Origin: a virus | Taxonomy: Duplodnaviria; Caudoviricetes | Length of the DNA: 27,269 bases | Direction: 5' to 3' (one strand) | Virus record (IMG/VR): IMGVR_UViG_3300036793_000081 | Span: 1-27,269 of that record | Part shown: positions 2,713 through 21,952 of the stretch, piece after piece | Layout of the letters: every line of letters begins with the position of its first letter | How positions within the stretch are numbered: position 1 is the first letter of the stretch | Translations under genes and position numbers: made by a program | Notes under the pieces: model-generated | Seen by the model: the letters and a program-made list of their open reading frames with translations, nothing else | Told to the model about the DNA's origin: nothing | Databases searched by the model: none

Positions 2713-3936
2713 ATGGCACAGTCACAACAACCGCCGTCACGAGGACAGTCACAACAATCCCCGTCACGGCGACCGGAGCAATCAGAGTCACCGCATCAAC
2801 GGCAGTTCCCGCCGCGCCCGATGCCGCAGGGTAGGACTTCGCGCGTACCCTACAGGCCAAACCCCAATGGGCCGATCCCGCGCGGTAGTCAACAAGGCGG
2901 CGCTACTCGTTCGACCGATATTCCTGGTGCGACACCGCCACCTGCCGAAGGTGGTTGGGGTTACATTCCTGAGTGGGGTTGGGGTAACTTCCCGCCGCGC
3001 TCCGCGCCACCGGATGGTGGCGGTGGTGAACAACCACCTGATCCTGGCAATGGTGGTGGCGAACAACCCCCTGATCCCGGCACCGAGCCGGGTGTTGTGT
3101 TTGAGGATACCTTCCGCGCCGGTAAGCTCGACCAGGGCAATTGGTTTACGCGGTACATCTACACCGGGCCGGATGGACCGGGAACCCTCGACTATCTCAA
3201 TGATGAAGTCGAGCGGTTCCGCGAAACCGGTAACCACGAGTTTGACAATAACGGGATGCATCTGACCGCAGAGCCGAGGAGTGACCAACTCGGTGGTTTG
3301 TATCCGAGCGGGATGGTGCGGTCAAAGTCACTGTTTGATCTGGCGTCCGGTGAAGAATTCTATTTTGAGTGCCGTGCCAAGGTACCAGGAGGCCAGGGTG
3401 TGTGGCCCGCGTTCTGGCTCAGTTCCGATGCGCGCAACCCCGGTGATGTCAACACCGCGTTGTGGCCCCCCGAGATCGACATCATGGAGATTGTTAACAA
3501 TGGGGTGGAAGACACTACAATGATGTTGGGGTGTCGCTGTCAGGTTAACGACTGGAACAGTAACCCGCAGAAATACGAGGGTGTCGAGGCTGACGAGAAC
3601 TTTAACTGGGAGTTCACCTGTTGGTACGCACCGTTTGATTTCGCGCATGATTACCATCTGTTCGGGTTACACTACAAACGGCCCAACTTCACTTTCTATT
3701 GTGACCGCAGCATGATCTATGCCGGGGTCTATGACTGGGTGTGGAATGACCGCGCGCCCGCCCCGCCCGCACATGTGTTGTGTAACCTAGCCATTGGCGG
3801 TCACTGGGCCGGGCGGCACGGGATCGATGACCGCGCGTTCCCGCAGTCACTCGATGTCGATTACATCCGGGTGTATTCCAGCATCACCGGTAACTTGCCG
3901 CAGGCACAACTCGGCAAGGATTACGACATAAGATAA
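2713..3936 (+). CDS. Glycoside hydrolase family 16 protein with Pro/Gly/Gln-rich N-terminus
   Basis: GH16 catalytic motif WPPEIDIME (EIDIME ~3472-3489), GVWPAFW, NLAIGG.W and VDYIRVY. Confidence 0.85.
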   Translation: MAQSQQPPSRGQSQQSPSRRPEQSESPHQRQFPPRPMPQGRTSRVPYRPNPNGPIPRGSQQGGATRSTDIPGATPPPAEGGWGYIPEWGWGNFPPRSAPPDGGGGEQPPDPGNGGGEQPPDPGTEPGVVFEDTFRAGKLDQGNWFTRYIYTGPDGPGTLDYLNDEVERFRETGNHEFDNNGMHLTAEPRSDQLGGLYPSGMVRSKSLFDLASGEEFYFECRAKVPGGQGVWPAFWLSSDARNPGDVNTALWPPEIDIMEIVNNGVEDTTMMLGCRCQVNDWNSNPQKYEGVEADENFNWEFTCWYAPFDFAHDYHLFGLHYKRPNFTFYCDRSMIYAGVYDWVWNDRAPAPPAHVLCNLAIGGHWAGRHGIDDRAFPQSLDVDYIRVYSSITGNLPQAQLGKDYDIR

Positions 3937-4014
3937 GAACCACCGGCGACGATTAGACACACGCGCGGCAAGTGAACCCGACCATCGCATAGAAACACTT
4001 CGAGGGAGTGCCTG

Positions 4015-6171
4015 ATGGCACGGACACAACGTAGTAAGAGTGTCGCGAGCGCGGCGCGCCGGGAAGCGGCGCGTCCGTTCCCGTCCGAGGTGACACGCAG
4101 CCAGACGATCACGCGTGACACCTACCAGAACTTTATGACCCGCACAGGCATGGGTACCGATAACCTCAACAGTTACGGTACCTACGGTTACTACCCGATC
4201 ACCCGGTTACGGATTATCCTCGATTTCGCCTACCGCTCGTCGTGGATATGCCGAACCGGGGTCGAAGCGGTGGCCGAGGATATGACCCGCGAGGGTTTCA
4301 CCTTGGGTTCCGATATGGACCCGACAGAGCGCGGTGACATCGAATCTGCGTTTAACGAGGAGTTCGCGATCTGGGACAAGCTGGCGGAAACTATCACCTG
4401 GGCGCGGCTCTATGGTGGTGCCGGTGCGTTTATCATGATCGATGGGCAAGACCCCAAGACGCCGCTGCGCGCCGAGACTGTAGCAAAGAATTCCTTTTGT
4501 GGGTTGTTACCGCTCGACCGCTGGCTGATCGATCCCTCACTCACCGATCTTGTCACCGATCAACGGTCACTCGATTACGGTAAGCCGAAGTTCTACACCA
4601 CGGTGGGTGACACACCGCTACCACCCTCGACGCGGATACACCACACGCGGTTTATTCGTTTTGATGGTGTCAAGCTGCCGTATTATCAGAGACTCTCCGA
4701 AAACTTGTGGGACATGTCTGTGCTGGAACCTTTGTGGGACCGGCTGATGTCCTTTGACATGACCACCGCGAGTACCGCGCAACTGGTCAATCGCGCTAGT
4801 GTCCGCAAGCTGTTTATCGAGAAGTGGAAGGAGACAGTCGGTACTGGCGGTGACATGCTCGCGGCGCAGTTACAGGCAATCGACTTCTTGCGGTTCTATC
4901 AACAAAACGAGGGTATCTCGGTTCTCGATGCCAACGACCGCATGGAGTCCGATGTTTATTCCTTCACCGGCTTGGACGCGGTGCTGATCCAGATGGGTCA
5001 GCAAATCTCCGGTGCACTTGGTATCCCGCTAGTGAGACTCTTTGGTCAGTCACCGGTTGGTCTGAACTCAACCGGAGAGAGTGACATCCGCAACTATTAC
5101 GATATGATCAAATCTCAACAAGAACGTCGGTTCCGCAGACCGGTTGATGGTCTGATCGAGATTATCGCTAAGTCACTCGGCATCAAAATCCCCAACGGGT
5201 TTGGCTGGAACTTTAATCCGTTGTGGCAGTTGCAGGAGATCGAAAAGGTACAGATCAGTTCCGGTGTCACCCAACAAGTGTTACAGGCTTTCGAGGCTGG
5301 TGTCATCACCGATCAGGCACTGATCTTTAAGGAACTCAAGCAACAGTCACACCGCACGGGGGTGTGGACAAACATCACCGATGAGATGATCGACCAAGCC
5401 GAGAACGCGCCACCGCTTGCGCCACCAGGGGTGGGGACTCCCGGTGCAGGCGGGCCGGGCGCTGGAGGTGAGCCACCCGCACCGTCATTCCTCCCTGGAG
5501 CGGGTGGCAACGCGGCACCTCCAAAACCCGGCGGGCAGGACGAGGAGCGGTCATTCCTTCCGGGTCGTCGTGGGGGGAACAGTCACCGCTCCTCGTTCTT
5601 GCCAGGGGGTATGCGCACGATACTGGGTGCCGGTGGCGAGAAGGCAAGTGACGATGACCAACCGGAGTTACCGTTGTTTGCTAATCATCCCTCTGAGTGG
5701 ACCGTACCGCGCGACGAGGTGACCAAGAAACCCATCTTCCACATCTACACCAGTGACCAAAATCACCCGCCAAAACGGACCACGACCTATGCCGGGTTCC
5801 GGGTCGTGGTCGAGTGCGAGGAGGGTGACCAACGTCACGCCGGAAGTTCCGGCGGCGCGACCATGCTCGCACCTTACGGTTACTTCCCTGGCACGGTGGC
5901 CAATGACGGTGATTGTCTCGATGTGTTCCTGGGTCCGCACGAAGCGAGCAACCGGGTGTTCGTCATCGATACACAGGAACCCGGCACCAAGAAGTACCAC
6001 CAGCCAAAGGTGTTTCTCGGTTGGGGTACGGGTAGTGACGTCTTGAAGGTTTTCAACGGGTTCTATGCCGATGGCAGCGGGCCGGATCGCTTTATGCGTG
6101 GCAAGGAGTACACATTGGGGGATTTCCGCCAGTATTTTGACAATTTCGTAACCGAGCGAAAGGCTGTATAG
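4015..6171 (+). CDS. Portal protein (DUF1073/HI1409 type) with C-terminal inorganic-pyrophosphatase-like domain
   Basis: YRSSWICR..VE.VAEDMTREG, WARLYGG, IPLVRLFGQSPVGLNSTGESDIRNYYD, FNPLWQ. C-terminal YGYFPGT..NDGDCLDVFLG after a Pro/Gly linker. Confidence 0.9.
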   Translation: MARTQRSKSVASAARREAARPFPSEVTRSQTITRDTYQNFMTRTGMGTDNLNSYGTYGYYPITRLRIILDFAYRSSWICRTGVEAVAEDMTREGFTLGSDMDPTERGDIESAFNEEFAIWDKLAETITWARLYGGAGAFIMIDGQDPKTPLRAETVAKNSFCGLLPLDRWLIDPSLTDLVTDQRSLDYGKPKFYTTVGDTPLPPSTRIHHTRFIRFDGVKLPYYQRLSENLWDMSVLEPLWDRLMSFDMTTASTAQLVNRASVRKLFIEKWKETVGTGGDMLAAQLQAIDFLRFYQQNEGISVLDANDRMESDVYSFTGLDAVLIQMGQQISGALGIPLVRLFGQSPVGLNSTGESDIRNYYDMIKSQQERRFRRPVDGLIEIIAKSLGIKIPNGFGWNFNPLWQLQEIEKVQISSGVTQQVLQAFEAGVITDQALIFKELKQQSHRTGVWTNITDEMIDQAENAPPLAPPGVGTPGAGGPGAGGEPPAPSFLPGAGGNAAPPKPGGQDEERSFLPGRRGGNSHRSSFLPGGMRTILGAGGEKASDDDQPELPLFANHPSEWTVPRDEVTKKPIFHIYTSDQNHPPKRTTTYAGFRVVVECEEGDQRHAGSSGGATMLAPYGYFPGTVANDGDCLDVFLGPHEASNRVFVIDTQEPGTKKYHQPKVFLGWGTGSDVLKVFNGFYADGSGPDRFMRGKEYTLGDFRQYFDNFVTERKAV

Positions 6172-6212
6172 TGCGTGCCCCAGCCCTATGTGGGAAGGGA
6201 ATCAGTGACGCA

Positions 6213-6548
6213 GAGCGAGTCATATCTCCGGTTAGAATCAAGGGCGTTGAACGAGCCACCATGAATGACAGACACAATCGAGACGAGCGAGCCAGCCGAG
6301 CCGACAGATACAGGCGTGGAATGTGAGCCATGATAGCCGAAGAGACACAATAGCTCGAAGCGAGTCAGGTTGGCAGATTGAAACACGGTGGTCTGAACGA
6401 GCCACCATGAATGACAGACACAAAGGAGTCGGGCGAACCACATCTGAAAATATAGACACACGTAGTAGGAGTGAACCTGCCCAGACGAAAGACACAAATA
6501 CTCGGAGTGAGCCACAGTGATCGGATGGAAACAATAGAGGGAAGTGAC
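6213..6548 (+). repeat. TIGR-like dual-repeat array, segment 1 (9 units, ~36-nt period)
   Basis: Edge boxes at 6213, 6249, 6285, 6321, 6358, 6395, 6431, 6469, 6505, 6542 (consensus GAGYGARCCA) alternate with loop boxes (GACAGACACA-like), separated by 8-10 nt variable spacers. Confidence 0.85.
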
Positions 6549-6803
6549 ATGCTTGAAGGCTTCACCCTGTTCCGTGTCACCAAAGGGTGGCAGTGTTCCA
6601 CCAAGCAGGCCGAGCAAAACGGCTGGTCGGTGCGGATCATTGGTGACGAACAGGCACAACGCATCCTCGCCCAATTGAGTCAGGATCAGAGTACCGAAAC
6701 AGGCAATACGAACGACATCGCTAAGCGGCGTGAGTTAATAAAGCGCGTTGTCGATGTGGCAACGCAAATCCATGCCAAACGCCGTGTGATGCTCGAAGAG
6801 TGA
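6549..6803 (+). CDS. Hypothetical protein (84 aa) embedded in the array
   Basis: ATG 6549 overlaps the terminal repeat AAGTGAC-ATG, with AGAGGG upstream; stop TGA 6801-6803 is within the next edge repeat GAGTGAACCC. Confidence 0.7.
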   Translation: MLEGFTLFRVTKGWQCSTKQAEQNGWSVRIIGDEQAQRILAQLSQDQSTETGNTNDIAKRRELIKRVVDVATQIHAKRRVMLEE

Positions 6804-6954
6804 ACCCTCCAACTGGATAGAAGCATCCTACGAGAGTGAACCACTGAACATGGACAGACACATCTCACTAGAGTGAACCCTCAGACGGGATAGATACATG
6901 CAAGCGAAGAGTGAGCCATCTAGGTAGACAGACACAGTAATGAGGAGTGACACG
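6798..6954 (+). repeat. TIGR-like dual-repeat array, segment 2 (4 units)
   Basis: Edge boxes at 6798, 6834, 6871, 6909, 6945; loop boxes at 6816, 6853, 6889, 6927. Confidence 0.85.
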
Positions 6955-6956
6955 CA

Positions 6957-7157
6957 ATGAATGTCGATTTTAGTGCCGTGGAACTGGCACAGATTGTCAA
7001 GATGTGCGAAGCGGATAACATGGCGGATACCGTCATCGCCAAGATACACCACACGGCGCTGCGGGCTGTCCAGAACTTTCAAAAGGATGTGACCGAGCCA
7101 CCGGAACCGGCAGCCGACCCGCGCGAAGCGTCACAACAGTGGCGGTCACCGATCTAA
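6957..7157 (+). CDS. Hypothetical protein (66 aa) embedded in the array
   Basis: GAGGAG RBS is formed by the spacer/edge junction; stop TAA 7155-7157 lies in the edge variant ATCTAAACCC. Confidence 0.7.
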   Translation: MNVDFSAVELAQIVKMCEADNMADTVIAKIHHTALRAVQNFQKDVTEPPEPAADPREASQQWRSPI

Positions 7158-7658
7158 ACCCTATCGGTTGACAGAAACAAGGGAAAGAAGTGAGCCAAAA
7201 ATGACCAAGTAGAATCATTTGGTTTGTGTGGGCCATTTGAAGCGACAGACACATGCAAGATGAGTGAACCCTCGCTTGAGACAGAAACAGCCAGACGGAG
7301 TGAACCACTACAGTTGACAGACACATACAGATTGAGTGAGCCGTCAATGGAGATTGGACACAAATAGGATGTGCGCTTTCTGTTACGGTGCCAGGGCAGC
7401 GTTGTGGCGTATGGTCAAGCGTGGGCAGTACCTGCATACAGCCACGGGAATGGACAGACACAGGGCGATGAGTGAGCCAGTCACTAAGACAGAGACAAAT
7501 AGAGAGAGTGAGCCGGGTAGATTGAGAGACGCAGGCCACGGGAGTGAACCCGAAATTGCAACAGACACATGACGCGAGAGTGAACCCAGATCAGCAATAG
7601 ATACATGCTTGCGGAGTGAACCAACTTAGGCGATAGACACAGTCCAGGTGAGTGACTA
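7152..7658 (+). repeat. TIGR-like dual-repeat array, segment 3 (~12 units, one ~64-nt interruption)
   Basis: Edge boxes at 7152, 7188, 7226, 7262, 7298, 7334, (7435), 7470, 7506, 7542, 7578, 7614, 7650; exact 36-nt spacing over 7226-7334 and 7470-7650. Confidence 0.85.
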
Positions 7659-8072
7659 ATGGCCATGCTTGACAACAGTGACGAACGGGTCCAGGCCGCG
7701 TATCGCGAGCTTAGTGCGACGTTGGGCCGGTTTGTCGCCAGCTTCGCCAAGTTCGATCAGTCACTGATCGATCAGGTGAAGTATGTGGTCAAGGAGCACG
7801 CCACCAAGTTCAAGGTCGAGCACGGGTACGAGTTCCCGCCGTTGGGTCTGTTTGTGTTGCCGACCGCGCGGTTTATCATCTGTGCCCGGCGCGATCTCGA
7901 TGACAAAGAAATCCACAATCACTTGCTTGTGTGGTTGCGTCAGTTTGCGTCAAAAGGTATTCATCCTTCAGCGATGGAGGTGGCGGTTGCGGTACGGCAG
8001 TGTTGGCCGCACTATCGACCGCCCATCGAGGCGTATCGCAGGGACACTCGGAAGAAGCTGATCCTGCATTGA
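7659..8072 (+). CDS. Hypothetical protein (137 aa) directly following the array
   Basis: ATG follows the terminal repeat GAGTGAC-TA; globular-looking sequence, no recognised family. Confidence 0.7.
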   Translation: MAMLDNSDERVQAAYRELSATLGRFVASFAKFDQSLIDQVKYVVKEHATKFKVEHGYEFPPLGLFVLPTARFIICARRDLDDKEIHNHLLVWLRQFASKGIHPSAMEVAVAVRQCWPHYRPPIEAYRRDTRKKLILH

Positions 8073-8098
8073 CCGACGAGCCGGTAATGGAGGTGGCT

Positions 8099-8254
8099 AT
8101 GGTACAGCTAATTTTGCTTGTCCTGGCGTTCGTCCTGGCACTGGTGGAAGCCTTCACCCCGTATTGGTGGACCGCCCCAACCCGACCGCATCTCGGCTGG
8201 CTCGCGTTGGCGTTTTACTTCCTGTCGATTGTGCTGAGCCAGGGTCATATCTGA
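8099..8254 (+). CDS. Small two-helix membrane protein (51 aa)
   Basis: GGAGGT RBS; MVQLILLVLAFVLALVEAF...PHLGWLALAFYFLSIVL. Confidence 0.7.
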   Translation: MVQLILLVLAFVLALVEAFTPYWWTAPTRPHLGWLALAFYFLSIVLSQGHI

Positions 8255-9075
8255 TGCCGCATTATCACATCAAGGTGAGCGATGCCGCACGCGGCGGTTT
8301 TGCCCCGTCCACGCTGCCCAAGGTCACCCCACCCAAGGCCGCGCCAGCCAAACCTCCCAAAGCGCCCACCGCCAAGCCGCCCACGCTGCCAAAGCCCGGC
8401 GGCAGCGCAGGCGGCGGCAAACCGCTTGGAGCGGCCACGCATGTCGCGAGCGGGCTGGGTGAGGCGGCGTGGCGCGGCGCGGGGTTGGCGCGAGCCGGTG
8501 AGCGCGGCATCAACCGGTTGTCGGCGTTTGGCGAAGAGTTTAACCGCGACGATTCCGGGAGGGATGAGATGGGGCACTACCACTTTAACATCCCGAGTCG
8601 CGGTTCCCGGATGAGCCAGGATTATGGTACCTCCGAAGGCGCGCGGAAACGGGGACAAGGTGTCACGCGAGCCGAAGTGGAACAACGTAACTCGATGGGT
8701 AGTCACGCCAACCAAGCCGCCTACCACAAGAAACAGGCGGCGGCGCACAGTCAGGCTGGGCGTAACACCGCATCGCGGGCGCATAACACGGCGTACCAAG
8801 CGCATAGTCAGGCGTGGCGTAACCCGTCACCGGGGAACTCGGCGCATGCCTGGGGCGCGACCCGTAACACCAAGCAGTTTGGTGACTCCGGTACCAGCGA
8901 AGGTGCCAGGAAAGCGGCAGCGACCCGTTCCGGTCGTGGTCACGCGGTGACCGGTGGCGCGGCTACCGGCAAGTTCAAGCCGTATGGTGTCGATATCAAG
9001 GCCGGTTCCAACACGCGGCAGGCACCAAAGCCAGACCCGGAACCGTTCCGGGGTTACGATAGCCGCAGGAAGTGA
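8254..9075 (+). CDS. Basic low-complexity hypothetical protein (D.GTSEGARK repeats)
   Basis: TGATG coupling with the upstream gene; Pro/Lys/Ala-rich; two GTSEGARK motifs. Confidence 0.7.
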   Translation: MPHYHIKVSDAARGGFAPSTLPKVTPPKAAPAKPPKAPTAKPPTLPKPGGSAGGGKPLGAATHVASGLGEAAWRGAGLARAGERGINRLSAFGEEFNRDDSGRDEMGHYHFNIPSRGSRMSQDYGTSEGARKRGQGVTRAEVEQRNSMGSHANQAAYHKKQAAAHSQAGRNTASRAHNTAYQAHSQAWRNPSPGNSAHAWGATRNTKQFGDSGTSEGARKAAATRSGRGHAVTGGAATGKFKPYGVDIKAGSNTRQAPKPDPEPFRGYDSRRK

Positions 9076-12540: not shown

Positions 12541-12765
12541 ATGAAAGCAGAGTGTGAGGAGTTCCGGCGCAGGATCAAGACCCTCGCCGATGATATACTT
12601 CTTCTGCGGCGTGGTGGTTCTGACAGTGTGCCTGAAGCGATTGCCAATGTCACCTTGGCGTACCGACACCTCGAAGACGCATCGATGCGGCTGGGCAAGG
12701 CGATCCAGGCAATTGACGGCGGTGTCAGTGTCTATGACCGGGATCAGGTGCCGAAATCGGAGTAG
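12541..12765 (+). CDS. Small helical hypothetical protein (74 aa)
   Basis: GAGAGGA RBS; two predicted helices; LAYRHLEDASMRLGKAI. Confidence 0.7.
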   Translation: MKAECEEFRRRIKTLADDILLLRRGGSDSVPEAIANVTLAYRHLEDASMRLGKAIQAIDGGVSVYDRDQVPKSE

Positions 12766-12771
12766 TGACAC

Positions 12772-15700
12772 ATGAGTGTCTTTCTGCATCTGCGTGACGG
12801 TGTCTACAAGGTCAGGGATCAAGGCGGTATCCCGGTGCCGCTCGATCCCGATTTGTTGTTCCTCGCCGAGAACGCCAAGCAGCAAAACATTATCCAGGAA
12901 CTCTACCGGGTGCAGATGGAGCGTAACCGCTCGCGTCACATGTTTGGTGACTGGGAAGAATCGGATCACCCGCGTGGTCAGCCGGGTAATGCTGGTCAGT
13001 TTGTCGAGGGAGGCAGTAGTGGCGGAAAAGGAACCGAACGACCAGACCGAGAAGAAACCTACGCCAGAGGAGCGGGGGGAAGCGGAGTTCGAAGCCCAGA
13101 ACAGGCACAGAGGAGCGCAGCGCAGGCCGCGTCCGGTAGACCCAAGCTAGAAGGTCTGCCCGATGAGCCGATAAAGCTGGGTGACGGTTACTATGTGTTC
13201 GGCCCATCGGGCAAGATACACGACACTGCCGATAGTTACATGAAGAAGGCGGGGCTTACCTACAACCCGCCGCATCGTTACGTGCATGTTGACGCTGACA
13301 ATGCTACGGATGTTGCCGAAGCGTTTGCGCAGATGAAGCACGATCCCGACGACCCAAAGGTCAAGGCGGCGTATGATGCGCTGGTCAAAGAGACACTGGC
13401 GCAGTGGCAGGAAGTGAAGAAGACCGGGCTTAAGGTACAGTGGATCAAGGAGGGTGACCAAGACCCCTATGTTGAGTCACTGAACTTTATCCATGCGGAC
13501 AACCGCGACAATGATCACTTGTGGGAGTTCCCGACCGACCTGGGTTACGGTACCGAAGACCCGACCGCACGGAACAACAACCCGATGTTACAACCGACTG
13601 ATGAAGTGGTTGACGGTCACAAGTGTTTGGTGAATGACATTTTCCGCATCGTGCACGATTATTTTGGTCACTTTAAGGATGGTGTCAGCTTTACCGATGA
13701 CGGCGAGGAGAACGCGTGGCGGTCGCACGCCTCGATGTACAGCCCGCTCGCGCGCGGCGCGCTGACGACTGAAACTCGCGGACAGGCGGCGTGGGTCAAT
13801 CATGGGCCGCATGGTGAGGCTAACCGAACAGCGAGTGTTGCTGACATTGTCTACGCGCCGCAGAAGATTGGATTGATGCCATCGTGGACGTGGGACGAAG
13901 ACCAGTGGCGTGACGCCGAGTTTAAGGAAGACGAACACCCGCGTGACGAAGACGGGAAGTTCACTGCCGGGCACCGCGCGGGCAGCAAACGGCAGCAAGA
14001 GGTACCGTCTGTCATAGAGTCACCGGCAGCGGAGCCGCCGAAAGAGGCACGGGAGGCATCGTATGAGCGGCCAAGGAACTTACCAAAGTCACTAATTACT
14101 GCATTGGATGACCAGAATTACAAATTTGAGAGAACCAATAATCCTGATGACGATTCGGCGCGCCACGTATTTACGGAGTGGGGAACCGGGAGCACGATTG
14201 AATACGGTCTACAGGATTGGGGTGCCGGGCATCATTGGGAACACAGGGATGCCAAAAGCGGGCGGCGTTATATGGGTTATGGTAACCTCGCTCTGATCGG
14301 TCATCTGAGAAGATACGCAAAGGGGGAAGTGTTTGATTCCAAGTTTGCCAAAGAGTTTGGTGACAAGCTGTTTGAGTCACAATCCGGGTTCAGGCCGTTT
14401 CTCGAATCAGACAACGCGGTGGCGTTCACCAACGGGTTTGGTGACCAAATTTATCTCTACAAGGATGAGGACAAAGCCGCGCTCGACACTGCTAATTGGA
14501 AGATATACATCGATCATGGTGATGGCACTGGCAAGAACCAGTACAACGAGGGTCACGGCTGGGACGACCTGAAAAGTAACCTTAGTATGCTGGAGGATGC
14601 CCATCTGGAGGATAAGCAAAAACGCGAAACCGCCAATAAACGCTACGTCGATCTCGGTCACGATATGATGAAGAGTCTGGGTTACGATCCCAGTTATCTC
14701 ACAGTCACTCACGAAGAACACCCGTTTACGCTCAACGGTGTCAAAAGGTATGCCGCCGGTACCGCTCAAACTACGAACGGTAGGATAGCTCTCTACGCCA
14801 AACAGTTGGAGGGACTCAGTGACCATGTCATACGTGGTATTGTCGCGCATGAGGTGACACACCAAAAATTCCAGCGGGCACTTGACGTGTGGCACAAAGA
14901 GCGTGACAAGCCAGCCGACCAGCGGGATTACGGGTCGGCTGCCAAGCTGGCAGAGCTACTCGATTTTAGCGGTGACGGGTTTGACCGGTACAGCAAGACT
15001 GACGGTGTTACTCAGTATAGCCGGGACCATTGGAGGGCGTACAAAAGCGGTGAGGAGAATTGGGAACTGGCGTTTCATGAGACACTCGCCGAGATGGCGC
15101 ATTTGGAAGTTACCGATCCGGCAGAACTAAAGGCGGTGGCGAAGCCGTGGCGTGATTTGTACAAAGAAGTTTTGTCACTTTATCGCACGCAACCGGCTCT
15201 GCGTAGCGCGACATCGCCACCGGCACCACAGCCATCTCGACCGACAGAATCAGATAATCAGAGTGCAGCCGTGCACCCGGCGGTGCACAAACTGGCGCAA
15301 GCTCTGCATGAGGTACTCCATCTCGGTGACAAAGAGTGGAATAAGGCAGATCACCCACAGGCACCCGAAGGCGCGCCCGAAGGTAAGGGTGGGCAGTTTG
15401 TGTCTAAGGGCGAAGGTGGCGGTGGTACAACAACCACGCCAAAGGAAGAGAAACAGAGAGTAGGAGTGTTACCGCAGATCAAGGCTCCAGTGACCAAGGC
15501 TGCGTTACCCGATAGTGCGAAAGACAGTCACCCGGCAATGATCTCCAGCCGTGTGCCTACGACAAAGGGCGCGACGGACGACCGTTACCGCCGCGCCGAT
15601 CTCGCGGCGATGAAGGAGAATGACCAAGCCTTTGATCACAATACGTCACTGTTTGACGACGAGGAACACTACCCAAACTTCCAGCCCGGCGAACTCGATT

Positions 15701-17001
15701 GCCCGCCAGCAAAAGGTGACGCTTCGCGCTGCGCCGAGTATCGGGCACAGGTGATTATGGAACACATGAAGGCAAACCTGCGGTTCCTCTACAAGAACGC
15801 ACCGAAGGAGGTCCGTGAGCAAGGTCACCTGTGGTACGAGGGCGCGCACAAGCTCGCCAAGGCCGATGCCGAGAAGTACGGGTTACCGCTGCAAAGCGTG
15901 GTCGGTATCTACGCCGCATTGTCGCCGCAGACCCTATGGGATTTGAATGTTCACTTGGCGAAGACGGTACTCGATGTCTACCACACCAAGCAGGACTTCA
16001 AGTGGGACAAGGCGATGGAGGATAAGGCACAAGAAATTTGGAGTGCCAAGAACAAGTTACTGTTGTCCGGCATCAGGAACAATACACTAGGGGAACTGAC
16101 CGACCCGGTGGCTAAGGCAATGTGGATACGGACTTATGACGAAACCTATAACAAGGACCGCAGCTTTAACGCACTGTCACCCGATGGCCGGGTTGTCGGC
16201 AAGTATAAGAACCTGGACGGCAGTAACGCTCAAGGCGGGTGGAACAGTATCCCGCCGATTGTCCACGCGATCATCTCGCTGGAGTCTGGCGGCGACCGGG
16301 ACATCATCAGCCCGGCGATGGGCGAAAGACACAAAGTGCGGAGTTTCTACAACAACATCCTCGACCCGGATAGTGACAATGACGATGTGACGGTCGATAC
16401 CCATGCGGTGGGCGCGGCGTTACTGCGTGCTTTGGGTGGTTCCACTGTTCCGGTGATGCACTCATTTGGCAAAGGACCATCAACCAAGGCTGAGAGTGAG
16501 CGTATCCATTATCGCGGTACGTCGAGCAAGGGTGTGTCGACACAAGGTCTATATGCGATCTACGCCGAGGCTTATCGCGAGCTAGCCAAGGAATTGAAGA
16601 TCAAGCCGCGTGTGTTGCAGTCGATCACCTGGGAAGCCAAGCGCCGCCTGTTTGACGAGCGGATGACTGACGAGGCCAAGCAGAGCGTCGAGCGCGCGTG
16701 GCGCACTTACCGCGATGGTAAAGCCAGTCTCGATAAGACACAAAAAGACATCCTCAAGCTGGCGGGCGGGTTCGCTAGGGGACAGGAGAAGAGTGATGAC
16801 AACGCTAGCAAACGATCCGCTGGTGAAGTATTTACGGTCGGTCGGCGTACCGGTGACGCGCGCCAATTGGATCAATTTGGCATTCGGAGCCGAACCGCCA
16901 GACCCGCTGACACCGGAAGACGAGGATATGGTCCCGGAGGAATTGCAATTGGGGCGCGACGAATCTGGCAAAACGCACGACTCGCCGTGTTCTTGCGCTA
17001 A
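12772..17001 (+). CDS. Large multidomain (polyvalent-like) protein: FRIVHDYFGH domain, HExxH zincin-like domain, C-terminal glycosylase-like domain
   Basis: 1409 aa; HEVTH at 14848-14862 with downstream HETLAE; KVRSFYNNI..DVTVDTH..LQSITW; modules separated by D..W/F.E.DHP(R/Q)..G.F linkers. Confidence 0.75.
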   Translation: MSVFLHLRDGVYKVRDQGGIPVPLDPDLLFLAENAKQQNIIQELYRVQMERNRSRHMFGDWEESDHPRGQPGNAGQFVEGGSSGGKGTERPDREETYARGAGGSGVRSPEQAQRSAAQAASGRPKLEGLPDEPIKLGDGYYVFGPSGKIHDTADSYMKKAGLTYNPPHRYVHVDADNATDVAEAFAQMKHDPDDPKVKAAYDALVKETLAQWQEVKKTGLKVQWIKEGDQDPYVESLNFIHADNRDNDHLWEFPTDLGYGTEDPTARNNNPMLQPTDEVVDGHKCLVNDIFRIVHDYFGHFKDGVSFTDDGEENAWRSHASMYSPLARGALTTETRGQAAWVNHGPHGEANRTASVADIVYAPQKIGLMPSWTWDEDQWRDAEFKEDEHPRDEDGKFTAGHRAGSKRQQEVPSVIESPAAEPPKEAREASYERPRNLPKSLITALDDQNYKFERTNNPDDDSARHVFTEWGTGSTIEYGLQDWGAGHHWEHRDAKSGRRYMGYGNLALIGHLRRYAKGEVFDSKFAKEFGDKLFESQSGFRPFLESDNAVAFTNGFGDQIYLYKDEDKAALDTANWKIYIDHGDGTGKNQYNEGHGWDDLKSNLSMLEDAHLEDKQKRETANKRYVDLGHDMMKSLGYDPSYLTVTHEEHPFTLNGVKRYAAGTAQTTNGRIALYAKQLEGLSDHVIRGIVAHEVTHQKFQRALDVWHKERDKPADQRDYGSAAKLAELLDFSGDGFDRYSKTDGVTQYSRDHWRAYKSGEENWELAFHETLAEMAHLEVTDPAELKAVAKPWRDLYKEVLSLYRTQPALRSATSPPAPQPSRPTESDNQSAAVHPAVHKLAQALHEVLHLGDKEWNKADHPQAPEGAPEGKGGQFVSKGEGGGGTTTTPKEEKQRVGVLPQIKAPVTKAALPDSAKDSHPAMISSRVPTTKGATDDRYRRADLAAMKENDQAFDHNTSLFDDEEHYPNFQPGELDCPPAKGDASRCAEYRAQVIMEHMKANLRFLYKNAPKEVREQGHLWYEGAHKLAKADAEKYGLPLQSVVGIYAALSPQTLWDLNVHLAKTVLDVYHTKQDFKWDKAMEDKAQEIWSAKNKLLLSGIRNNTLGELTDPVAKAMWIRTYDETYNKDRSFNALSPDGRVVGKYKNLDGSNAQGGWNSIPPIVHAIISLESGGDRDIISPAMGERHKVRSFYNNILDPDSDNDDVTVDTHAVGAALLRALGGSTVPVMHSFGKGPSTKAESERIHYRGTSSKGVSTQGLYAIYAEAYRELAKELKIKPRVLQSITWEAKRRLFDERMTDEAKQSVERAWRTYRDGKASLDKTQKDILKLAGGFARGQEKSDDNASKRSAGEVFTVGRRTGDARQLDQFGIRSRTARPADTGRRGYGPGGIAIGARRIWQNARLAVFLR

Positions 17002-21265: not shown

Positions 21266-21402
21266 TGACTGATCGTGAAGAACGTATCCGCCAACGCGCC
21301 GAAGAGCTTTGGCGGGAAGCAGGCCAGCCCCAAGGCCGCGACGAAGAGTTTTGGCACAAGGCTGAGAAGGAGATCGACGCGGACCCATCACCGGAGGTGT
21401 GA
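21265..21402 (+). CDS. DUF2934-family protein (45 aa)
   Basis: TGATG coupling; MTDREERIRQRAEELWREAGQPQGRDEEFWHKAEKEI matches the DUF2934 pattern. Confidence 0.8.
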   Translation: MTDREERIRQRAEELWREAGQPQGRDEEFWHKAEKEIDADPSPEV

Positions 21403-21403
21403 C

Positions 21404-21952
21404 ATGCCCTTGACGCCCGCTGAGTTGGGTTACATCGCCGGGATTGTGGACGGCGAAGGTTCGATCAGCTTGGCTCACTGTAGCGCGCGGGCGTCAGGTG
21501 TGTATGTGTATCCGCTTGTGAGAGTTGCCAATACCGACAAGGGTTTGATCGATTGGTTGGACGAGAAGGTCGGTGTCGGTCATACTGGGTACGTGTCTAA
21601 GTTACACTTAGGCTGCAAGGACGTGTATCACTGGGCTATCGCGAGTAACGAGGCTTACGAGTTACTTGTCAAGATTAGACCGTACCTTGTGGTTAAGGCG
21701 CATCGAGCGGATATAGTAACCGCGCTTTGGGAAGAGAATGAAACGGCACTGCGTGTAGCGGGAAGGAACAATTGGGGCAATCACCACCCCGTGCCGAATT
21801 GGTTACGGAGTTGGCGAGAAGCCTGTTTTCTGTACCTGAAAGACCTCAACAGACGCGGACCCGGTGAACCCAAGTTTGGTGACAAAGTCCGTCGATTGTT
21901 ACAACATCACGAAGTGGCTCTAGCTGTATGGAGGGAGTCACATGCCGCTTAA
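21404..21952 (+). CDS. Free-standing LAGLIDADG homing endonuclease (single motif)
   Basis: GGAGGT RBS; ELGYIAGIVDGEGSI, V.NTD..LI, LL.KIRPYLVVK. Confidence 0.85.
   Translation: MPLTPAELGYIAGIVDGEGSISLAHCSARASGVYVYPLVRVANTDKGLIDWLDEKVGVGHTGYVSKLHLGCKDVYHWAIASNEAYELLVKIRPYLVVKAHRADIVTALWEENETALRVAGRNNWGNHHPVPNWLRSWREACFLYLKDLNRRGPGEPKFGDKVRRLLQHHEVALAVWRESHAA

Follow-up and report, generated by a model that had tools for sequence, protein, structure and literature searches.

The 27-kb phage fragment analysed here (the whole of record G000, 27,269 nucleotides, hereafter the window) carries a TIGR array that lies in segments at the junctions of genes of fixed order; the segments are probably co-transcribed with these genes, and their guides probably cut by a TasA protein that is likely encoded elsewhere in the phage. 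The window covers a head and tail module, in which profile searches recognise genes for a portal, a MuF-like head protein, a major capsid protein and a sheath (Table 1). Junction counts refer to the window plus eight related contigs (relatives are labelled G or L with a number). G001 is the complete genome of a close relative (112,650 bp), sharing long blocks of 82–89% DNA identity with the window, while G002–G004 and G006–G009 are incomplete fragments; 13 more distant portal loci scanned with the segment detector yielded 0 segments.

Table 1. Array segments and neighbouring genes in the window (positions are those of the window).
Feature	Position	Strand	Remarks
Two-unit TIGR mini-array	3938..4010	+	Between stop of GH16-domain gene (3934-3936) and portal start (4015); also in G001, G002, L001
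Portal gene	4015..6171	+	PF06381, C-terminal PF18823; array segments on either side
Array segment 1, 10 guide units	6182..6546	+	From 5' half edge (positions 6-10) to 3' half edge (positions 1-5)
ORF1, 84 aa, no family	6549..6803	+	Stop is TGA of complete edge 6798-6807; N-terminal ~41 codons conserved
Degenerate guide-like unit inside ORF1	6678..6714	+	Edge at 6673, loop near 6692; putative function
Array segment 2, 4 guide units	6803..6949	+	Predicted first cut inside ORF1 stop codon
ORF2, 66 aa, no family	6957..7157	+	Repeat-free in arrayless phages G006, G007
Array segment 3, 6 guide units	7157..7375	+	First half edge shares its first base with ORF2 stop; last unit overlaps ORF3 start codon
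ORF3, 67 aa	7369..7572	+	ATG inside last spacer of segment 3; runs into segment 4, no stop at next edge
Array segment 4, 6 guide units	7440..7654	+	Overlaps 3' part of ORF3
ORF4, 137 aa, no family	7659..8072	+	74-92% identical in relatives; distant repeat-free homologue in G007

The array is built of two repeats alternating in 36-nt units, each unit comprising a 10-nt edge (consensus GAGTGARCCA), an 8-nt spacer A, a 10–13-nt loop (consensus GAYAGAHACA) and an 8-nt spacer B. Edge and loop both begin with GA and finish with NCA, and G5, A6 and C9 are invariant. Four segments between 6182 and 7654 hold 26 units, and two further units lie ahead of the portal gene; the original prediction had counted three segments, missing the conserved gene, ORF3, on which segment 3 ends. 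Judged by sequence, the repeats are a dual-repeat TIGR array: alternating repeats of 8–12 nt enclose spacers of 8–12 nt in a unit of about 36 nt, box C/D-like motifs are common to edge and loop, a covarying edge pair links the ends of one guide, and the terminal edges are truncated at segment ends. The boxes read GA...NCA here as opposed to UG...CCA in TaTIGR (PMC12045711), and the same study allows the letters of the box motifs to differ between TIGR systems if they covary.

The edge of tigRNAs is known to form an extra covarying pair between both ends of one guide (PMC12045711). Such a pair is found here, joining position 4 of the edge downstream to position 7 of the one upstream: the combination C-A occurs in 2 of 255 complete units, as against 21/255 within one genomic edge and 29/255 in the wrong phase, and the window's own units are compatible with the rule in 20/20 cases; the loop control is paired in 41/349. 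This covariation fixes the strand (+) and the phase of the array. The same rule extends to the segment ends. First units that have no full edge retain a 5' half edge (positions 6–10) at the right distance in 33/40 cases, against a background of 7.6%, and obey the pairing rule in 33/33; last units retain a 3' half edge (positions 1–5) in 53 of 66 segments and obey it in 52/53, while box C is kept in only 4/53. As units are common to relatives, P values in this analysis exaggerate independence. Together, terminal half edges and pairing indicate that segments begin and finish at the predicted ends of mature guides, with the cut between positions 5 and 6, consistent with the report that tigr units are cut mid-edge and that TIGR arrays open and close with truncated edges (PMC12045711). 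The apparent split edges are thus guide ends grafted on gene ends rather than one repeat parted by a gene. The idea that genes sit inside split edge repeats fails already at 6798, where the edge is complete, so that ORF1 does not lie within one split repeat.

A candidate for the processing enzyme is encoded in the complete relative. A protein of G001, about 55 kb off, scores 196.5 bits on the NF052498 TIGR_Tas_endo model (cut-off 100), and all ten Foldseek matches of its structure model at E<=0.001 are TasH or TasR. The N-terminal nuclease is absent, and a Tyr and a His seven residues apart align to the processing loop of SpTasH, whose processing pair has been described (PMC13421893). The tas gene is present in G001 and G005, where it adjoins arrays with matching repeats; profile searches found none within the 27-kb contig, nor was tas found in the fragments G002–G004 and G006–G009, all incomplete. 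Because the window contig holds no tas, we infer the TasA of its phage from the relative. In G001, 83 of 98 units, in 13 segments, lie at least 37 kb from tas. The G001 TasA (G001:C1:18781-19926, locus L025, minus strand; protein P0008) also has an insertion of ~85 aa at residues ~150–230, modelled as all-beta and found in some of its closest homologues too, with no family named; a NusG-like identity was dropped, given the all-beta model and no family match. Elsewhere, the contigs L002, L009, L010 and L016 are other phage sequences with arrays of the same repeat family, up to 47 boxes, and in L016 the tas gene is flanked on both sides by arrays.

The junctions between segments and genes are tight. 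All five named in the original prediction were located where it had placed them: a half edge is followed by ATG at 6549, 6957 and 7659, and the stop codons at 6801-6803 (TGA) and 7155-7157 (TAA) occupy the TGA slot of the next edge. Its observation on stop codons goes beyond chance, since ORFs of at least 45 aa end exactly at edge positions 4–6 in 16 of 65 segment starts versus 15 of 311 internal edges in the window and eight contigs; ORF ends at any other offset in a 66-nt range never number more than 4. A TAA fills this slot in 7/65 first edges versus 3/311 internal ones, and at least 11 unrelated families end there. The predicted cut falls within the stop codons of both ORF1 and ORF2. On the downstream side, the Shine-Dalgarno-like character claimed for the last spacer B was confirmed as well: together with the edge, the last spacer B forms stronger pairing with a generic anti-Shine-Dalgarno sequence than internal ones do (mean -5.7, n=39, versus -4.2 kcal/mol, n=283; P=3.5e-4, relatives not being independent), with values of -6.9, -8.9 and -8.4 at the three window sites. 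An ATG lies 2–7 nt past the predicted cut in 27 of the 32 segments that have a nearby ATG.

Framing is not confined to small genes. The portal gene (ATG at 4015), a core gene, is framed like the small ORFs, and among other framed genes of the clade are an SMC-like 610-aa gene, a PD-(D/E)XK nuclease and tRNA-His. The last of these (L031:9623-9697, in G002) stands between segments, preceded by a half edge and with a 5' half edge at its 3' end. Promoter-like sites number 2 in 3800–8300 (2.2 expected), none within an array; there is no excess of promoters or terminators at the repeats, and no hairpin.

The genes between the segments are under constraint. ORF1 has seven homologues and ORF2 eight, none of them named; ORF1, ORF2 and ORF4 have no match above cut-off in Pfam, PHROGs or NCBIfam, nor has ORF3 in NCBIfam, against which alone it was searched. 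Purifying selection is evident for the N-terminal ~41 codons of ORF1 (pN 0.15–0.26 versus pS 0.41–0.61, against 6 relatives), for the first 22 codons of ORF3, which are conserved in seven phages and contain a CxxC motif (pN 0.05–0.22 versus pS 0.45–0.88), and likewise for ORF2 and ORF4; the tail of ORF3 is translated from array sequence and is not conserved. ORF1 is the most constant in its framing: 7/7 homologues stop in an edge and 6/7 start behind a half edge. Among nine ORF2 homologues, seven have an array upstream and three downstream, and G006 and G007 are without any segment; in G006 the preceding gene is one that we take, from its sequence, to be ribonucleotide-reductase-like. Homologues of ORF2 (G006, G007) and a distant homologue of ORF4 (G007) are repeat-free in these arrayless relatives. 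Guide-like units also occur within genes. In-frame units lie in the variable C-terminal half of ORF1 in the window (6673-6714), in G001 (G001:C1:74847-74913), where the two at the matching place are clearer, and in L063 and L060; the accessible text of Xu et al. (bioRxiv 10.64898/2026.09.09.750476) describes intragenic TIGR units solely inside tas.

Comparison of the locus among relatives shows an invariant order of genes and a changing array. From the portal gene through ORF1, ORF2, ORF3 and ORF4 to the next gene, the order is identical in 7/7 array-bearing contigs, one of which spans ORF1–ORF4 only, while the same junctions are found both filled and empty. With the same last codons and stop, ORF2 is followed by an array in the window, G001 and G009 and directly by an overlapping ATG in L060, G008 and G007; in L060 and G008 it immediately adjoins the gene that follows. 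Ahead of the gene at 2378, neither the window nor G001 has a unit in the junction; G002, L001 and L058 have one each. Empty G001 junctions resemble half edges, and half-edge look-alikes stand before starts without an array in 14 of 116 cases in G001, versus 1/121 and 2/51 in arrayless genomes, landing sites and relics being indistinguishable. Guides turn over fast: of 23 window guides, only 8 are matched in G001, and for three of these the order differs. An identical spacer A at 6259-6266 and 6405-6412 of the window, joined to different spacer B partners, suggests exchange within the loop repeat.

The genes found between segments differ to some extent from contig to contig. A 106-aa gene of G005 is bounded on both sides by a 13-nt direct repeat made of a half edge and ATG; in G001 the same last spacer is followed directly by the next gene, the 106-aa gene being absent. 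Here a gene was gained or lost exactly at a repeat. A gene whose product starts with KNPYP follows the portal gene in three of the six contigs that cover this junction, and is bounded by segments. These two cases, one precise and one segment-bounded, show that genes are occasionally gained or lost between repeats. Further inserts are present in G009 and L058. In L001 and G008, additional genes downstream of ORF2 lack a repeat at the 5' end.

These observations can be brought together in one model. The segments, having no promoter-like site of their own, would be transcribed along with the flanking genes, and a TasA acting in trans would cut the transcripts into guides of about 36 nt. As the repeats overlap stop codons and likely ribosome-binding sites, the guides are likely excised from the mRNAs themselves. 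TasA with its guide would then bind DNA that matches spacer A together with reverse-complemented spacer B, and would repress this DNA rather than cut it, as guided DNA binding and repression are reported for another TasA (bioRxiv 10.64898/2026.09.09.750476). Excision of a terminal guide would sever the mRNA within the upstream stop codon and 2–7 nt before the downstream ATG, leaving the upstream message without a stop codon and the downstream one without a ribosome-binding site, so that making guides and translating the neighbouring genes would be in competition. Release or regulation of single-gene mRNAs by array processing, one of the alternatives originally proposed, fits this geometry and would be a likely consequence, the one we favour. 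Units may have been gained at, or lost from, stop/start junctions that were already half-edge-like, the change being able to run in either direction, and compaction would maintain the overlap; recombination between repeats would now and then add or drop a gene as a by-product. A bolder version, which we regard as rather unlikely, would have TasA as a genome-wide mRNA processor that times phage gene expression and at the same time arms guides against rival DNA, with units spreading into half-edge-like junctions and occasional capture of genes between duplicated half edges.

The most serious competitor, to which we give a substantial chance if somewhat below an even one, conflicts with the model on the regulatory step alone: the TIGR arrays would be real, with terminal half edges that are never cut and flanking mRNAs that remain unaffected. 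Truncated end edges are indeed typical of TIGR arrays, and minimized arrays required full edges for processing (PMC12045711); any ORF that enters an edge in frame stops at its TGA, and archaeal C/D box sRNAs supply stops in 23 cases, regulation not being shown there (PMC6009581). Such close packing is harder to reconcile with an ORF3 start codon that lies inside a guide, and with terminal units that are as strict on end pairing as internal ones (33/33 and 52/53), a strictness that suggests binding by Tas as whole guides, whose release would then need cutting or trimming at the junction.

Two further explanations place recombination rather than guides at the centre. In one, a dedicated recombinase would insert, excise and reorder single-gene cassettes at the edge repeats, as the integron-like organisation originally proposed would have it. 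The tight framing of the genes and the 106-aa gene of G005 between its direct repeats are what such a system would leave, and G001 does encode a tyrosine integrase. This enzyme, the sole integrase among the 90 G001 ORFs scanned, is however an arm-type prophage integrase with an arm-binding domain, at least 14 kb from the segments; no integron-integrase model scores above cut-off in G001, and none is found in the window. Nor do the repeats resemble recombination sites: eight folds gave no hairpin (z -1.0 to +2.3), and the four segments contain 0 RYYYAAC and one GTTRRRY. With gene order invariant, the portal (a core gene), the SMC-like gene and tRNA-His framed as well, ORF2 and ORF4 found free of repeats in relatives and the extra genes after ORF2 carrying no 5' repeat, this reading is largely refuted, and we consider it highly improbable. 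In the other, to which we also assign a small, slightly larger probability, the dispersed repeats would be kept mainly for the passive swapping of accessory genes, guide function being secondary. T4-type phages offer a precedent (PMC2839356); the KNPYP gene and the inserts of G009 and L058, the reordered guide units between window and G001, and a RecA encoded by G001 are all in line with it. The repeats, however, are only 10 nt long and degenerate, the cross-unit pair and the half-edge geometry are constraints at the RNA level that would be useless to DNA recombination, and the framed ORF1–ORF4 never reorder. Insertion and shuffling at the repeats thus do not hold as the main mechanism, and survive in part, in that the content between segments varies.

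Among known systems, the closest is dual-repeat TIGR-TasA (Faure et al. 2025, PMC12045711; Xu et al. 2026, bioRxiv 10.64898/2026.09.09.750476), which has the same 36-nt units of edge, spacer A, loop and spacer B, truncated terminal edges and a covarying edge pair, and whose processing enzyme is matched in G001 by a nuclease-less Nop-domain Tas with a Tyr/His processing loop. In contrast with the described arrays, which adjoin or sit inside tas, most G001 units stand at junctions of unrelated genes far from it, and the units overlap stop codons, ribosome-binding regions and some coding sequence. A similar intimacy with mRNAs is seen in the archaeal C/D box sRNA genes of Pyrobaculum (PMC6009581), where guides are co-located with mRNAs, a box supplies the upstream stop, start codons can fall inside the guide, and excision from the mRNA is discussed as regulatory; these are single RNA-methylation guides in archaea, as opposed to tandem arrays of a DNA-targeting type in a phage. 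The PeSL cassettes of T4-type phages (Arbiol et al. 2010, PMC2839356) share dispersed repeats between small genes and gain or loss by repeat recombination, but PeSLs consist of a sigma-70 promoter and terminator stem-loops, whereas the repeats here have neither and enclose variable spacers.

Integron cassettes are small genes closely framed by attC sites, imperfect inverted repeats that carry RYYYAAC/GTTRRRY cores, take up a fold in single-stranded form and are used by the integrase IntI. Single small genes are closely framed here too, but there are no attC hairpins or core sites and no integron integrase in G001, the order is fixed and core genes are framed.

The TIGR system itself is of a known kind, while no published account came up of its spread across gene junctions distant from tas, the accessible parts of a noncoding-space preprint and of PMC3950731 included. 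The literature searched yielded no description of TIGR arrays, dispersed or intergenic, that are fused to the stop codons of unrelated genes, the supplements of the bioRxiv studies and subscription papers such as the Mol Cell SpTasH study lying beyond that search; the four repeat motifs and words for split arrays do not occur in the four text supplements of PMC12045711, whose figure S4, an image, could show such loci. New here are the end-pairing test on terminal units and the pairs of occupied and empty versions of one junction. Both TIGR studies (PMC12045711; bioRxiv 10.64898/2026.09.09.750476) list array expansion and natural function among the open questions. With such paired junctions, arrays of a single unit and guides that turn over fast between phages of about 85% identity, this clade makes expansion testable by comparison. 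Should units indeed have spread into half-edge mimics, this would be the first visible trace of TIGR array expansion; should terminal units be cut, TasA would also regulate the mRNAs of its own phage. Moreover, the phylogeny set of Xu et al. took up to 10 kb around tas (bioRxiv 10.64898/2026.09.09.750476), and since the bulk of a phage's guides can lie tens of kilobases away from tas, surveys centred on this gene undercount guides.

The targets of the guides were sought among relatives. Spacer A joined to reverse-complemented spacer B gave 0 exact matches for 295 guides in 647 kb of related sequence, and with at most one mismatch 3/295 guides match clade genomes versus 2.6 expected, which indicates no target enrichment there. 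A signal in arrayless relatives (3 versus 0.8 expected, P=0.053) was discarded, as a control geometry gave as much. Unlike most guides, one is near-identical upstream of ORF4 in four phages (G001:75807, G009:4162, L001:8611, L058:6974, oriented positions) and is a candidate for having a conserved target.

Further features of the window were noted. The PF18823 'inorganic pyrophosphatase' domain is joined to the C-terminus of the portal protein (4015-6171) via a proline/glycine-rich linker. A putative homing endonuclease gene (21275-21952, phrog_5046) lies between head and neck genes, at a point where the G001 alignment breaks. The 1409-aa gene at 12772-17001, with a DUF7178 domain, shows patchy DNA similarity to G001 only, which marks it as a variable multi-domain gene of the head module. 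Just ahead of it, a 74-aa gene (12541-12765) has a near-threshold match to the Acb2/Tad1 hairpin (PF24729, 26.6 bits, cut-off 27) and is possibly an anti-defence sponge.
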